From positions 1 through 51,296 of the forward strand of contig JAAOYB010000017.1 in NCBI GenBank assembly GCA_018221135.1: DNA of 51,296 bases. The letters run 5' to 3'. This document shows, one piece after another, positions 17,621 through 22,484 of this stretch. Within the stretch, counting starts at the first letter, position 1. The number at the start of each line of letters is the position of its first letter. The notes beneath the pieces were generated by a model. The model did no database searches and was not told where the DNA came from. It was given only the letters and a program-made list of their open reading frames with translations. This stretch comes from Candidatus Woesearchaeota archaeon. Its GTDB lineage: Archaea > Nanobdellota > Nanobdellia > Woesearchaeales > BM511. The position numbers and the translations under genes are program-made.

Positions 17621-18682
17621 TTATGTGTTATTAATATAGTTTTTTATTCTTCTTAGTCCTTCTTCTATCTTATCTGTTTCTAAAGCGTAACTAAGACGTA
17701 TCCTGTTTGGGCTTCCAAACCACTCACCAAGATATGTTATGACGTCATGGTTTTTGTATAGTTCCCAAACCGTTTTTCTTGGGTTTTTTATTTTTGGAAA
17801 AACATAGAATGCTCCTTCTGGCTTCCACAAATCCAATCCTAGGTCTTGTAGTCCTTTGTATATCGTGTCTCTTCTATTCTCCCACCTAACTCTTTGTTCT
17901 TCTATCACACTTTTTGGTGTTTTTAAGGCTTCTATAGCCATTTGCTGCGCTAAGATATTAGTGTTCATTGAGCTATGCGTCTTGATATCAATTGCTCTTT
18001 TCACTATTGATTTGTCATTTGAGTAAAGGTACCCTATCCTGAATCCACACATACTAAAAGTTTTTGAAAAACTGTTTATTGTAATTACGTGATCACCTGA
18101 TAACATGTAGTTTTCTCTCTCGTAGATTAAATCTTTGTAGACTTCGTCACTTATTATTACTTTGCCTAAGTCTTTGGCGAGTTTCTCTATTTCTTTGAGT
18201 GTTTTTATCTCTTGAATCCTCCCTGTCGGGTTCGAGGGACTGTTTATTAGTATTGCTTTACACTCATGTATTTTTTGTTCTACGTCATCTATTTGTATCC
18301 TGCCACCTATTGTTTCTGTGATTACTGGTTCTATATGGTTTGCTTTTAGTAGCGGTGGGTAAGAGTAGTAGTACGGCGCGTGGATTAAGATTTTGTCCTT
18401 TGGTTTGCATATGCTTCTAAAGGTTAAGTCTATTGCTTCTGATGCTCCGTTTGTTATTACAAAATTGTCTTTGTCTGCGTCTTGATTTAAGAATTCGCTT
18501 CTAAGAGAGTTTCTTAGTTTTTCTTCTCCTTGGATGAGGCCATAAGCAAAGTTCGTGTACTTTGGCAGTATGTCATATATTCCTTTTGGGGGCGGCATGT
18601 CTGGTTGTCCGCTTCCAAAACTTATCAAGTTTTCTTGTTTTATTCCTATAAACATTGATGGGCTGCTTAGTTTATCTGTCAT
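17621..18682 (-). CDS. PLP-dependent class I/II (aspartate-type) aminotransferase
   Basis: GQPD, TNGASEA, NSPSNPTG, DEVY, SFSKTFSMCGFRIG, EGAFY. Confidence 0.93.
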   Translation of the reverse strand: MTDKLSSPSMFIGIKQENLISFGSGQPDMPPPKGIYDILPKYTNFAYGLIQGEEKLRNSLRSEFLNQDADKDNFVITNGASEAIDLTFRSICKPKDKILIHAPYYYSYPPLLKANHIEPVITETIGGRIQIDDVEQKIHECKAILINSPSNPTGRIQEIKTLKEIEKLAKDLGKVIISDEVYKDLIYERENYMLSGDHVITINSFSKTFSMCGFRIGYLYSNDKSIVKRAIDIKTHSSMNTNILAQQMAIEALKTPKSVIEEQRVRWENRRDTIYKGLQDLGLDLWKPEGAFYVFPKIKNPRKTVWELYKNHDVITYLGEWFGSPNRIRLSYALETDKIEEGLRRIKNYINNT

Positions 18683-18770
18683 TTTATTATCACCTTAAAT
18701 AATCCTTATTTTTTCAAAAAAAAAGGGTTTTTTATTTTTTTAACAGGGTTTTAACTATGAAGTAGAATTC

Positions 18771-18815
18771 TTATCCCGCTATTGCGTCTAAGTCACCTGT
18801 TAAGCTTGTTTTCAT
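18771..18815 (-). other. 14-codon leaderless small ORF (MKTSLTGDLDAIAG) within a structured leader of the aminotransferase gene
   Basis: ATG lies ~26 nt downstream of TTTATAAA (18841-18848). It overlaps the 8-bp inverted repeat TTAACAGG/CCTGTTAA (18740-18747/18796-18803). Confidence 0.35.
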
Positions 18816-18972
18816 AATAGTATTTATTTGTTTTTTTTTATTTATAAACTTGTCGAAAATCTTATTTTTTTGCTTGTCGAGAACGCTTTTTTCACTAAGT
18901 GGTGGGTATACTTTTTTGTATACTGGTTTAACTATATTTTATAGGATAGAAAACTATATAAATATGAAAAAT

Positions 18973-19020
18973 CAACAACATATTGATAGTTCATGGGTAT
19001 TCGACCACAACCGGTTGTGG
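18973..19020 (+). promoter_or_regulatory. Tandem NrdR-box-like operators
   Basis: caaCAACATATTGata (18973-18988) and ccaCAACCGGTTGtgg (19005-19020) start 32 bp apart, just downstream of TATATAAA (18955-18962) and upstream of an NrdD-like gene. Confidence 0.65.
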
Positions 19021-19086
19021 TTTGGTCGATTTGTTGTGTGCTCTGGGTAGAGACAAGGATTGGGGAGATGTAGGAGGCAAGTAAAG

Positions 19087-19308
19087 ATGCAAAAAAGTGA
19101 ATGCAAGCAATGCGGGAGCACAAACACACATGGCATAAGCAGAGTAGTTGGTTACTATAGTATAATTGAGAACTGGAACACTTCTAAACAAGCTGAATTC
19201 AAAGATAGACAAATAGGAGATTATAAGCTTAACGAGTCTGAATTAATCCCTGAGCGAGCTGAGAGATTACAAGCAAAAGGCGAACAAGAAGTAATCGTAG
19301 TAATATAA
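19087..19308 (+). CDS. Stand-alone C-terminal glycyl-radical domain of anaerobic ribonucleotide reductase NrdD (73 aa)
   Basis: CKQCGS...ISRVVGYY...NWNTSKQAEFKDR; Shine-Dalgarno AGGAGG at 19072-19077 before ATG 19087. Confidence 0.85.
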   Translation: MQKSECKQCGSTNTHGISRVVGYYSIIENWNTSKQAEFKDRQIGDYKLNESELIPERAERLQAKGEQEVIVVI

Positions 19309-19363
19309 CCAAATTCTTTTTTTGGATTAATTTTATATAATAACTAGAACCTTCTATTATTTT

Positions 19364-20107
19364 ATGGCTAGAGTTTTTTGGAATGATGTAAAAAGAGTCA
19401 TCGCTGAGAGCGATGTAATCATTGAAGTTCTTGATAGTCGCTTCGTTGATCTAAGTAGGAACTCTGAAATCGAAAAAAAGATTGAGGCTGCTGGCAAACC
19501 AATAATTTTTGTTATTAACAAATGCGACTTAGTAGAAAAAGACGTACTTGACAGAAAGAAAAAAAAGTTGAAGCACTCAGTATTTGTTAGTTCTAAAGGC
19601 CACCTCGGCACTACTATTCTTAGAGACAAAATATTAAGTGTTGCTAAAAAAGATAAAGTAGTCGTCGGAGTCGTTGGTTACCCCAACACAGGAAAGAGCA
19701 GCTTGATTAATGCGCTGGCCGGAAAGGCTAAGGCTAAGGCTAGTAGTGTTAGTGGCTACACCAAAGGGTTCCAATACGTAAAAGCTGATAATCGTATAAA
19801 ACTCATTGACTCGCCAGGCGTTATTCCTTTTCGAGAAGATGACGAAATAAAACACGCATTGATAGGTTCTAAGAGCCCAGAGAAGATGAAAGAACCTGAC
19901 TTAGCAGCCATGAATCTAATCGAAGAACTCGGAGGATTAGTCGAACTTCATTATGACGTCGAGATACAACGCGACGGTTACGAAGCAATTGAAGCAATCG
20001 CCAAAAAAATAGGAAGACTCGCTAAAGGCGGCGAAGCAGACATTGACACTACAAGCAGAATAATTCTAAAAGACTGGCAAACAGGACGGATAAAACACTC
20101 AAAATGA
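19364..20107 (+). CDS. Circularly permuted ribosome biogenesis GTPase (RbgA/YlqF family)
   Basis: G4 NKCD precedes G1 GYPNTGKSS, G2 GYT and G3 DSPG; C-terminal LKDWQTG. Confidence 0.93.
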   Translation: MARVFWNDVKRVIAESDVIIEVLDSRFVDLSRNSEIEKKIEAAGKPIIFVINKCDLVEKDVLDRKKKKLKHSVFVSSKGHLGTTILRDKILSVAKKDKVVVGVVGYPNTGKSSLINALAGKAKAKASSVSGYTKGFQYVKADNRIKLIDSPGVIPFREDDEIKHALIGSKSPEKMKEPDLAAMNLIEELGGLVELHYDVEIQRDGYEAIEAIAKKIGRLAKGGEADIDTTSRIILKDWQTGRIKHSK

Positions 20108-20129: not shown

Positions 20130-20182
20130 ATAAAGAAAACACAAAAGAAAGTGTTTTCGAACCCGTTCTTACATTCTTTGAA

Positions 20183-20253
20183 TGCGTCGACCGGGAATTG
20201 AACCCGGGCCTAAGCGTTGGCAACGCCCAATTGTACCATTCAACCACCGACGC
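20183..20253 (-). tRNA. tRNA-Gly(GCC), no intron, CCA not encoded
   Basis: Cloverleaf: acceptor GCGTCGG/TCGACGC, anticodon arm GGGCG-TTGCCAA-CGCTT, T arm CCGGG-TTCAATT-CCCGG. Confidence 0.96.
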
Positions 20254-20365
20254 AATAATTGATTTAGTAGTGGAGAATTGAGGTTTTATTTATAAAATTA
20301 ACCCAAAAAAACACTTTTTTAGTATAACAATAATTTTTTAAACAAAAAAGGTTTTCTAATATATT

Positions 20366-21292
20366 ATGAGTAAAGAAAAGTATGACTTAATAATTATAGG
20401 AGCAGGCGCAGCTGCTTACTCAGCCGCGATATATGCTCAAAGAGCGAAGCTAAGCGTGTTAATAATCGGAAAACTAATCGGTGGGACCACGACAGAAGCC
20501 CATCTAATCGAGAACTGGCCAGGAACAAAGAGTAAACCAGGACTAGAATTAATGAATGAATTCAAAGCTCACACAGAAAGTTACGGCGCAAAAATATTAA
20601 TGGATGAAGTAGTCAGGATAAACAAAAAAGACGACGACTTCTTAGTACACACCAAGAGCAAAGAAGAATACCAATCAAGCTATATACTACTAGCAATAGG
20701 ACTGGATCGAAGAAAACTAGGAATACCAGGAGAAAAAGAATTACTAGGTCGAGGCGTGAGTTACTGTGCGACATGCGACGCTTTCTTTTTCAAAGACAAA
20801 ACAGTCGCCGTGGTTGGCGGAAGCGACGCCGCGACAATGACAGCAATACTATTATCAGAGCACGCCAAAAAAGTCTATATAGTATACAGACGTGATAAGT
20901 TAAGAGGTGAGCCTGTCTGGATAGAAAGAGTACAAGAAAATCCAAAGATAGAATTAATTTTGAACACGACGCTAACAAAGATAAACGGAGAAAAAGCAGT
21001 TGAGAGCGTCTCATTAGATAAAGGAGAAAACTTAGCAGTTGAAGGAGTATTCATCGAAGTTGGAAGCGTCCCAAGCAAAGTCTTAATTAACGCTTTAGGA
21101 GTAGAAGTTGATAAAGAAGATTACATAGTAGTAGATGAGACCCAAAAGACTAATGTAGACGGTGTCTACGCAGCAGGAGACATCACAAACGCTAGTAACA
21201 AATTAAAACAAGTGGTGACCTCAGCATCAGAAGGAGCAATCGCTGCAAATAACATCTTCAAAAAAAACGCTGTGAGAGTAGCCAAAAAATAG
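20366..21292 (+). CDS. trxB: Thioredoxin reductase
   Basis: IIGAGAAAYSAA, GRGVSYCATCD, VVGGSDAA, GVYAAGD. Confidence 0.95.
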   Translation: MSKEKYDLIIIGAGAAAYSAAIYAQRAKLSVLIIGKLIGGTTTEAHLIENWPGTKSKPGLELMNEFKAHTESYGAKILMDEVVRINKKDDDFLVHTKSKEEYQSSYILLAIGLDRRKLGIPGEKELLGRGVSYCATCDAFFFKDKTVAVVGGSDAATMTAILLSEHAKKVYIVYRRDKLRGEPVWIERVQENPKIELILNTTLTKINGEKAVESVSLDKGENLAVEGVFIEVGSVPSKVLINALGVEVDKEDYIVVDETQKTNVDGVYAAGDITNASNKLKQVVTSASEGAIAANNIFKKNAVRVAKK

Positions 21293-21296
21293 TTCT

Positions 21297-21647
21297 TTAC
21301 CATTTTTCTAGTTCTGCCAAAACTTTTTTTTGCCACGCCTCAAAATTTTCGTAAATCAATTTCTTGATATTATTCTTGTCGCTTATCTCGTAAACAAATA
21401 AGTATCCTCCACTACCTATGTTTATTTGACGTCTACTAATAATTTTTTTGTCTAGTAAGTTCTTTATGCTTTTCTGAGTGGTTGAGCGATCACGTTTTAG
21501 CTTCTTTGCGATTTGGCTTATCTCCAACTCCTTATTATTTGATAAAAGAGTTTTGAATACTTGATAATCGGTTTTGCTCATCGCAAACGCGCAGCGTATC
21601 ACTTGTTCTATAGGAACTTGTTTACATGCAAAGTTAATCATCTCCAT
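21297..21647 (-). CDS. Winged-HTH transcriptional regulator (TrmB/MarR-like) with N-terminal cysteines
   Basis: IAKKLKRDRSTTQKSIKNL helix-turn-helix, GGYLFVY wing, C8 and C19. Confidence 0.85.
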   Translation of the reverse strand: MEMINFACKQVPIEQVIRCAFAMSKTDYQVFKTLLSNNKELEISQIAKKLKRDRSTTQKSIKNLLDKKIISRRQINIGSGGYLFVYEISDKNNIKKLIYENFEAWQKKVLAELEKW

Positions 21648-21690
21648 GTTTGACTAGAAAAAGTTTTTGTTATTTAAATAATTTGTTGGT

Positions 21691-21709
21691 TGTGCAAAAA
21701 AACCGCACA
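21691..21709. promoter_or_regulatory. Palindromic operator TGTGC-N9-GCACA between divergent TATA boxes
   Basis: Lies between TTTAAATA (~21672-21680, regulator) and TTTATAAA (21731-21738, trxA). Confidence 0.5.
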
Positions 21710-21780
21710 TTTTTTCACTTTAACAAACGCTTTATAAATAAATAACTCTTAACCAAAAACTAATCTCAAAAAAAATAGTT

Positions 21781-22116
21781 ATGGAGGAAAATAATATGGT
21801 TGTTGAATTAAGCATTGAGAATTTTGATAAAGAAATAAAAGAATCAAGCGTGCCAGTAGTAGTTGATTTCTGGGCTCCTTGGTGTGGTCCTTGCCAGATG
21901 ATGGCACCTGTTTTTGAGGAGTTATCAAAAGAGTTCAACGGAAAAGTTAAGCTTGTGAAATTAAACACTGATGAGAACCAGCAAATAGCTGGGGGCTTTC
22001 AGATTAGAGGAATCCCTACTCTCATAATATTAAAGGATGGTAAAGAAGTTGATAGAATAGTTGGCTTTGCTCCAAAAGAAGTCTTAAAACAAAAAATTGA
22101 GAGCACAATAGCATAA
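21781..22116 (+). CDS. trxA: Thioredoxin
   Basis: [17 protein letters not shown]. Confidence 0.97.
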
Positions 22117-22118
22117 AA

Positions 22119-22484
22119 ATGAGTGTTAAGATAAGTGTTTTTACGTCTCCGACGTGCCCTCACTGCCCCGCTGCTATAAACGTAGCTAGGACTGTCTCTA
22201 AGGAGATGGGTGTCAGATTAGTTGAGATAAGCACCGCTACAAATGAAGGCAGTAAAAAAGCAAGAGCTCATCAGATTATGAGTGTGCCTACAACTATCAT
22301 TAAGGGTGATGGCTATGATCAAAACATTGGTTTTAAGGGTGCGCCTAGTAAAGCAAGCTTGATTAAAGCTGTGCGTATCGCTAATGGTGAAGAAGGATTC
22401 CAAGAAAAAAAGAAGAGTTTTGGTTTGGGTCAAAAAATTAATTCTTTTATTAAAGATAAGTTCAAGATAAAAATAAGATTATAA
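22119..22484 (+). CDS. Thioredoxin/glutaredoxin-like protein
   Basis: FTSPTCPHCP, IMSVPT cis-Pro loop, GAP. Confidence 0.9.
   Translation: MSVKISVFTSPTCPHCPAAINVARTVSKEMGVRLVEISTATNEGSKKARAHQIMSVPTTIIKGDGYDQNIGFKGAPSKASLIKAVRIANGEEGFQEKKKSFGLGQKINSFIKDKFKIKIRL

Follow-up and report, generated by a model that had tools for sequence, protein, structure and literature searches.

The window under study, by which we mean the whole stretch of 51,296 nucleotides from a contig of a Candidatus Woesearchaeota archaeon, harbours a short gene whose coordinates, together with those of its internal motifs and of the signals surrounding it, are collected in Table 1. The encoded protein of 73 residues matches a single Pfam family at E≤10, namely PF13597 (NRDD), with a score of 39.6 bits (E 3.6e-10) against a cut-off of 26.2, and the match places residues 4–42 on profile positions 522–560 of 562. 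The placement is the same on the longer model TIGR02487, where the protein falls on positions 541–579 of 581, scoring 44.3 bits against a cut-off of 326. As judged from these matches, the protein is a domain-level relative of NrdD and not an enzyme, as both the barrel and the loop that carries the thiyl-radical cysteine are absent. It had been described in the initial annotation as an NrdD C-terminus made up of a CxxC pair, an RVVGY loop and a WNxxKxxExxDR helix, and this description is borne out by the two profiles as well as by the structural alignment given below. The same annotation had remarked that only one CxxC pair is present: indeed, the four-cysteine zinc site is incomplete in this chain, which contributes C6 and C9 only, the first knuckle being found on a separate protein encoded on contig C54 of the same assembly. 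What had escaped that annotation is a tail of 32 residues which follows the helix, lacks cysteines and ends in EQEVIVVI, an ending that the window protein has in common with P0002–P0005, P0008, P0009, P0012 and P0028 among the 81 small family members collected.

Table 1. Features of the window gene and of its flanking regions (positions are those of the window).
Feature	Position	Strand	Details
Predicted archaeal promoter, purine-rich BRE-like stretch and TATATAAA box	18948..18962	+	Read from the sequence; conserved upstream of the G002 orthologue, flanks diverged
NrdR box 1, 16 bp	18973..18988	.	6/6 highly conserved positions (C4, A6, A8, T9, T11, G13)
NrdR box 2, 16-bp palindrome, arms CCACAA / TTGTGG	19005..19020	.	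Four critical positions (C4, A6, T11, G13)
Shine-Dalgarno-like AGGAGG	19072..19077	+	9 nt before the ATG; read from the sequence
Gene for a stand-alone NrdD-type glycyl-radical subunit	19087..19308	+	ATG 19087, TAA 19306–19308 (stop included), 73 aa
C6-K-Q-C9 codons, second knuckle of the NrdD zinc ribbon	19102..19113	+	Aligned with the second CxxC of unsplit relatives and of 8p23_A
R19-V-V-G22-Y-Y codons, glycyl-radical loop	19141..19158	+	Gly22 codon 19150–19152; invariant in 20/20 aligned homologues
W30–R41 codons, WNTSKQAEFKDR, helix after the glycine loop (W30-N..K34..E37..D40-R41)	19174..19209	+	Pfam match, homologue alignment and 8p23_A alignment
E66–I73 codons, C-terminal EQEVIVVI tail motif	19282..19305	+	Ending common to 9/81 small family members
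T7 run after the stop, terminator-like for archaea	19317..19323	+	Read from the sequence; terminator role putative

An alignment of 20 small homologues contains 20 invariant residues, a degree of conservation which argues that the reading frame does not arise by chance. Using the profile of these 20 proteins, the sole solved structure that is matched is the NrdD of Prevotella copri (8p23_A, residues 698–735), the CxxC of the small proteins being aligned with the second cysteine pair of the structure and RVVGYY with RITGY. According to PMC11226230, residues 676–739 of P. copri NrdD form the glycyl radical domain, in which a structural zinc site is joined by a short helix, a tail at the surface and the buried loop whose Gly711 is the radical site. 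Since the chain in the PDB is 4 residues longer than the native protein, Gly22 of the window protein is the equivalent of Gly711, and Tyr23 that of the conserved Tyr712.

The gene seems to be equipped for independent expression, in agreement with the initial annotation, which had credited it with its own promoter and a strong ribosome-binding site. The TATATAAA box, the AGGAGG element and the T7 run are all in place, the TATA box being also conserved in the promoter of the orthologue from another genus (genome G002, see below), and the block that contains it probably acts as the promoter. The GTPase gene that comes next begins at a separate start after a further 55 nt, and the combination of own promoter signals, T7 run and separate GTPase start thus makes the window gene look monocistronic. 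Profile searches confirm that neither an nrdD body nor an nrdG gene is present on the window contig, as had been noted. The thioredoxin system that had been pointed out 1–3 kb away is likewise there, and comprises a Pyr_redox_2 reductase (20366–21292), a thioredoxin (21781–22116) and a Thioredoxin_3 protein (22119–22484), the latter from the same Pfam family as the redoxin of the nrdD operon described below. The complete arrangement within 20182–22484 consists of a tRNA-Gly(GCC) on the minus strand, the thioredoxin reductase-like gene, a TrmB/MarR-like regulator gene on the minus strand, the thioredoxin gene and that of the Thioredoxin_3 protein. Analysis of positions 18500–19500 with Rfam gave no credible RNA family, the sole match having an E value of 0.54 and 12.8 bits in respect to a gathering score of 60, and a repeat search of the upstream region returned A/T-rich matches only. 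Among sequencing runs the gene is listed for one, a sediment metagenome kept as contigs, with no RNA run listed.

Downstream of the putative promoter lie two 16-bp boxes which, together with the 16-bp linker that separates them, read CAACAACATATTGATAGTTCATGGGTATTCGACCACAACCGGTTGTGG (18973–19020). In PMC13584703 and PMC2892513, the NrdR site is described as two partly palindromic 16-bp boxes 15–16 bp apart, in which positions C4, A6, A8, T9, T11 and G13 are highly conserved and C4, G13, A6 and T11 are critical; these published positions, established for bacterial NrdR, constitute the definition on which all counts given here are based. The window operator shows the paired boxes, the 16-bp linker and the location at a promoter, and the genome encodes an NrdR composed of a zinc ribbon and an ATP-cone (191.5 bits on TIGR00244). 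The NrdR-like boxes of the initial annotation are confirmed, and a pair is present at the nrdR promoter as well. The centre of box 2 is CCGG, so that only 4 of the 8 positions between C4 and G13 are A/T, below the 63% limit given for bacterial NrdR in PMC13584703. Box 1 is predicted to coincide with the transcription start, approximately 25 nt after the TATA box, and repression would then operate by occlusion of this start.

Within the 1.05 Mb genome there are 95 boxes with 6/6 positions and 3333 with the four critical ones, and tandem pairs number only four: that at the nrdR(-nrdD) promoter, that at the window gene and two inside ORFs. The arms of box 2 recur at the nrdR promoters of the window's own genome (G000) and of its relative G001, as well as at the G002 orthologue of the window gene; when the latter is compared with the window gene, the 400-nt spacer proves to have diverged except in the TATA box and the two boxes, which are conserved. 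Linker length varies slightly, being 15 bp in the G002 orthologue and 17 bp at two nrdR promoters of the window's family. In a further scan, box pairs precede 2/2 window-type genes and 4/4 nrdR genes with a correctly placed start (a fifth nrdR gene, whose start is misplaced and which could not be evaluated, is outside this count). No pair was found before genes encoding NrdR-NrdD fusions (0/2), at the other orphan loci (0/6) or at any of the small genes of 80 metagenome loci. The occurrence of pairs at window-type and nrdR genes, and at none of these other sites, therefore puts the window gene in the operator class of the reductase operon and marks the operator as a lineage-specific feature. 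Comparison of the upstream region with a 16-nt NrdR consensus yielded at best 10/16 matches, which is chance-like; it is through the cross-genus footprint and the published positions that the boxes become clear.

The initial annotation had proposed that nrdD and nrdG be looked for elsewhere in the genome, and that NrdD be inspected for a glycine loop of its own. Both genes are indeed found in the assembly, which amounts to 1.05 Mb in 62 contigs and is 95% complete. A search with PF13597 returned four matches, corresponding to one NrdD body on contig C54 and to three short C-terminal pieces located on C54, on C48 (the window gene) and on C1. The body covers profile positions 1–517 with 384 bits and ends in SPEFTVCNDC plus an acidic tail, i.e. 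it stops after the first CxxC (CNDC) and is devoid of a glycine loop. Overlapping the last 17 nt of the body gene, in another frame, is a 58-aa gene that carries the missing elements, namely CGNC, RIVGYY and the helix, and this is followed on C54 by an 84-aa Thioredoxin_3 protein and by a 233-aa radical-SAM activase. The activase scores 208.4 bits on NrdG2 (TIGR02495, cut-off 131.15); assignment to the NrdG model TIGR02491 was considered and rejected, as only weak matches were obtained, and the activase is of the NrdG2 type. At its end, contig C8 carries nrdR, the last part of which is overlapped by the start of nrdD, and in G001 the genes for nrdR, body, small protein, redoxin and nrdG lie on a single contig; the same operon is also present in G002.

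Unsplit relatives from the same clade have two CxxC pairs separated by 7–34 residues, from which it follows that the chain break falls between the two zinc-ribbon knuckles, and that the zinc site, if formed at all, needs two chains. The genome thus encodes a class III reductase in two genes, with a body ending at the first CxxC and a small gene contributing the second CxxC and the glycine loop. No class I/II reductase (PF02867), pyruvate formate-lyase-like body (PF02901) or PF01228 domain was detected in this genome, the assembly of which is 95% complete; judging from this assembly, split NrdD is its only reductase and the only possible glycyl-radical body, which makes the C54 body the only plausible partner of the window protein. 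We can also specify the partner that had been suggested for it, an NrdD either cleaved by O2 or naturally split: the second option stands, while for the first there is no intact parent that gets cleaved. All genomic tests proposed in the initial annotation gave results in favour of its interpretation.

With a small subunit already present in the operon, the window gene counts as a supernumerary paralogue, three existing in all, and cannot be regarded as the body's only partner. The three copies measure 58 aa (operon), 63 aa (C1) and 73 aa (window), they all keep the 20 invariant residues, and the genome has a single body gene. The C1 copy starts 24 nt after a gene for a 4Fe-4S protein and is divergent from an HxlR-type regulator gene. 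At this third locus (L003, 1441–2522 on the minus and 2556–2915 on the plus strand, contig C1), the paralogue is co-transcribed with a protein of 274–288 aa which has an N-terminal 4Fe-4S dicluster domain and a Cys-rich C-terminal part, the pair as a whole being divergent from the HxlR-type gene. The genome also encodes a second NrdG2-like radical-SAM activase, whose score of 128.3 bits is just below the cut-off of 131.15. Its gene always lies beside a dUTPase gene, an arrangement conserved in G000 (L006, 1039–1776 and 1883–2365, both on the minus strand, contig C51), G001 and G003 (L052, L053).

Stand-alone small genes occur in all four genomes of the window's family, with 3, 2, 3 and 1 copies. 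In G002, which belongs to another genus, a syntenic orthologue of the window gene with 72% identity is found in the order alaS – small gene – GTPase, and there is also an orthologue of the C1 copy beside an HxlR gene. The evidence for purifying selection, which the initial annotation had asked for, is clear in direction. Over 41 core codons, window gene and orthologue differ with pS 0.86 and pN 0.106, and all 36 pairs analysed have pS of 0.74–1.08, i.e. saturated, and pN of 0.10–0.29; because of this synonymous saturation no pN/pS ratio is computable, yet the direction, purifying, is plain. In a tree of 36 small proteins over 47 columns, 25 of 31 inner branches are open, and the orphan copies may be old or recent duplicates.

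Two relatives depart from this scheme. In G003, of the same family and 95% complete, the only small copy is an intact orphan gene (L012, 1453–1692, minus strand), and neither an NrdD body nor a close NrdG orthologue was detected, the best NrdG relative (28% identity) being the second NrdG2-like activase. This genome encodes in addition the large subunit of a class I/II reductase (650 bits), which its three relatives lack. Given its 95% completeness, the NrdD operon of G003 may lie in an assembly gap. In G002, the orphan beside the HxlR-type gene (L026, 1498–1767, minus strand, contig C74) reads RVVWYY, with a TGG codon where all others have GGN. The tryptophan at the position of the radical glycine means that not every copy can carry a radical, and the G002 sequence could represent an assembly error, a dead copy or a decoy.

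More widely, a match is found in 17 of 41 genomes (the window's own and 40 relatives), and in 110 of the 301 genomes sampled from the order, the window's own included. The latter comprise 140 match rows, which by hand count divide into 68 in frames below 200 aa, 5 in frames of 289–490 aa and 67 in frames of at least 555 aa, with the proviso that some short frames may be cut by contig ends; 10 of these rows come from six genomes marked unpublished (G245, G184, G123, G211, G207 and G134), on which only the 301-genome count rests. Strong matches (at least 91 bits) correspond to 20 small genes in 13 genomes from 5 families, 12 of them behind a body ending in SPEFTxCxxC and 8 unlinked, two of the unlinked ones, from another family, being located beside an endonuclease III-like gene in two genera.

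A word-index search retrieved 18 small proteins, and an exhaustive profile search 1836 proteins at E≤0.001 and 172 at E≤1e-10, with 128 of the best 150 having at most 200 aa; of 168 proteins collected, 81 are of the small one-knuckle type to which the window protein belongs. When the 120 closest body homologues (64–100% identity) were analysed, 95 were found to lack a glycine loop in their last 110 residues; the source names given to some of the 120 include Woesearchaeota, Aenigmarchaeota, Heimdallarchaeota, Omnitrophica and 'bacterium'. The 80 metagenome loci, out of 262 relatives found and several being the same protein from different samples, comprise 48 with a small gene behind a loop-less body, 12 with a small gene and no body within 2.5 kb upstream, 8 long unsplit frames, 6 with too little flank and 6 outside the motif used. 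The ESM Atlas contains clusters of 54–78 aa NRDD-domain proteins from bacteria, archaea and viruses, which we take as a lead only.

Several other arrangements were noted along these searches. A second kind of split is present in other families of the order, where in all six loci inspected (L018, L020, L021, L022, L023 and L025) the body ends after a zinc site of the form CP.HGY..GEH.CP.C and is followed by a gene of 39–81 aa starting from about CEVYSRVVGY, often overlapping the body stop, and then by nrdG. Tandem pairs of 81–101 aa genes, encoding a Cys-rich, zinc-ribbon-like N-terminus and an NrdD-type glycine loop, occur at L036 (3787–4373), L037 (3149–3665) and L038 (3291–3847); these are not beside nrdD, the genomes G080 and G075 have full-length NrdD frames elsewhere, and the situation is nearer to that of true GrcA. 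Many body homologues carry an N-terminal NrdR-type zinc ribbon and an ATP-cone (PF22811 + PF03477 + PF13597), as in P0185–P0193 and others and at L039 (723–3236) and L041 (4000–6498), one such fusion bearing the source name 'transcriptional regulator NrdR'. Proteins of approximately 95–135 aa without CxxC (P0099, P0105, P0108, P0112, P0113 and some 40 more) consist of an N-terminal domain of about 65 residues followed by the NrdD-type glycine loop and helix. Finally, in P0065 (189 aa) and P0143 (176 aa) the small radical subunit is fused to a cysteine-containing C-terminal extension of about 120 residues, redoxin-like by eye, so that the domain order equals the operon gene order, small subunit and then redoxin.

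Taken together, these results lead us to the reading that the window gene is probably an additional, NrdR-controlled gene for the detachable radical subunit of a class III reductase made of two pieces, supplying a surplus of the one part that oxygen destroys. The NrdD barrel chain ends just after the first CxxC of its C-terminal zinc ribbon, and the second CxxC, the buried glycine loop and the closing helix are encoded as a separate protein of 58–73 aa; this protein would dock into the barrel, hold a zinc ion jointly with the body and be given its radical by the NrdG2-type activase. A first such small gene is translationally coupled to the body within the nrdR-nrdD-small-redoxin-nrdG operon, and the window gene is an unlinked, apparently monocistronic extra copy, which would be repressed by NrdR through the two boxes over the predicted transcription start. 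As these boxes are shared, the window gene is expected to be switched together with the reductase operon. A damaged tip could in this way be exchanged and the enzyme repaired without remaking the 730-aa body, and the window protein would most likely be used as just such a part, to be replaced when oxygen has damaged it. A detachable radical subunit gains plausibility from the single-chain NrdD of P. copri, whose radical domain becomes too mobile to be seen upon dATP binding (PMC11226230). We can tentatively conceive of a bolder version, possible although doubtful, in which the small proteins of 6–8 kDa act as exchangeable radical cartridges: they would receive their charge while off the enzyme, either from NrdG or from the second NrdG2-like activase, be plugged in via the shared zinc and be discarded after O2 damage, with NrdR setting the size of the pool.

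Since an operon-encoded small subunit exists, the window copy may also be plain redundancy. A plain duplicate or condition-specific isoform would form the same holoenzyme as the operon copy, serving dosage or, through its tail, another reductant or partner, a possibility which we regard as rather unlikely but deserving attention. The core is near-identical in the three paralogues, whose tails differ in length and ending, and other family members end in cysteine pairs. Such endings recall the redox-shuttle tails of class I/II reductases. The genes for thioredoxin reductase, thioredoxin and the Thioredoxin_3 paralogue of the operon redoxin that lie 1–3 kb downstream would fit such a role; however, the tail of the window protein has no cysteine, and the GTPase, tRNA-Gly and regulator genes separate the redoxin genes from the window gene. 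Moreover, a gene that is monocistronic and has both an NrdR operator of its own and a strong site for ribosome binding is expected to give an excess of small subunit, which would be useful mainly if this subunit turns over faster. It is improbable, on the other hand, that the orphan radical proteins function independently of the body, with the second NrdG2-like activase beside the dUTPase gene or with some other partner. G003, having an orphan copy and the second activase-like gene and no detected body or close NrdG, could be taken in this sense, as could the 128.3-bit match of that activase to NrdG2 and its conservation beside dUTPase in G000, G001 and G003; but the operon of a genome only 95% complete may be located in a gap, all residues invariant among the operon-linked copies are retained by the window protein, the operator of its gene is common to the nrdR-nrdD operon, and no other glycyl-radical enzyme body was detected in G000.

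A free domain might alternatively compete with the operon subunit for the body or for NrdG and thereby tune or shut down the reductase, and the G002 orphan with tryptophan at the radical glycine would be just such an inert competitor. For the window protein this is very improbable, as it keeps Gly22, Tyr23 and the whole loop, and co-repression by NrdR of an inhibitor together with its target would not be expected. Least probable of all is that the gene is a functionless, decaying fragment of a duplication, an idea to which only its shortness and the name given to its orthologue at NCBI lend themselves. The frame, start, ribosome-binding site and promoter are intact, pN in respect to the orthologue is low and synonymous sites are saturated, synteny and operator are conserved across genera, and small homologues form dozens of clusters. 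The view of the initial annotation that this is no dead fragment can therefore be upheld, and the opposite one is rejected on conservation (pN against saturated pS), as far as sequence can do so.

Should the cartridge version be correct, a spare-part system would for the first time be known from a glycyl-radical enzyme that is not a formate lyase, and a class III reductase would for the first time have as its radical cofactor a separate, replaceable protein. A June 2026 review knows spare-part proteins for formate lyases only, and whether other members of the family have proteins of this kind is a question raised in the work on YfiD rescue (PMC8683613). A full-text search of the literature returned no publication in which a class III reductase is split; two papers by Burnim and co-workers, in the portions accessible, deal with split class II NrdJa/NrdJb and do not mention a split class III enzyme, though their supplements may list such sequences. 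The system offers a concrete, clonable test case, with one body, three small radical subunits, an NrdG2-type activase and its close paralogue, a redoxin and an NrdR operator, in a 1-Mb genome whose sole detected reductase is the split NrdD. It also shows that the class III catalytic chain is divisible inside the zinc ribbon, a point of relevance for the movement of the radical domain into and out of the barrel when the enzyme is activated. In terms of annotation, the G002 orthologue is named 'hypothetical protein' at NCBI, while bodies without a radical domain carry the labels of complete reductases.

Comparison with known systems helps to place these findings. The zinc knuckle, the RxxGY loop and the helix that follows are those of the single-chain NrdD enzymes, represented by P. 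copri (8p23) and by those of phage T4 and T. maritima, which are named in PMC11226230; in the same way, the C54 body is a normal NRDD barrel that is accompanied by an NrdG2-type activase and by predicted NrdR control as in bacteria. Unlike in these enzymes, the radical domain is here a separate chain, with a break between the CxxC knuckles such that the zinc site would span two proteins, and the small piece has three genes, the body one. The operator resembles bacterial NrdR sites (PMC13584703, PMC2892513) in having 6/6 positions in box 1, the four critical ones in box 2, a 16-bp linker and a putatively autoregulated nrdR with the same layout, and differs from them in that the promoter is archaeal, the boxes come after the TATA box and the centre of box 2 is CCGG instead of A/T-rich. 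A catalytic chain encoded by two genes, with the C-terminal zinc-finger part on the second chain, is also known from the class II NrdJa/NrdJb of Pseudomonas aeruginosa, as cited in PMC9669993; however, class and cofactor are different there, NrdJb carries no radical and, in what is available of that source, no extra unlinked copies are described.

For pyruvate formate-lyase, autonomous glycyl-radical 'spare parts' are known in GrcA/YfiD of E. coli and in Y06I of phage T4 (PMC8683613, PMC13450708), which are close counterparts in proposed function. As in those cases, a small stand-alone radical-domain protein is encoded apart from the body, here by a monocistronic gene on a contig other than that of nrdD; by analogy, it would plausibly be activated by the enzyme's own activase and be able to re-arm a body without a working radical domain. 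Unlike GrcA/YfiD, the window protein has no PF01228 match at E≤10, belongs to the NRDD family and carries half a zinc ribbon, and the parent body is born without a radical domain and does not lose its glycine loop to oxygen, an operon-encoded small subunit being at hand. Of the GrcA-like system that had been proposed, the functional likeness thus persists, whereas membership in the GrcA family does not and the operon already supplies the small subunit: with no intact enzyme from which a tip could be cleaved, any likeness to GrcA would lie in function and not in family.
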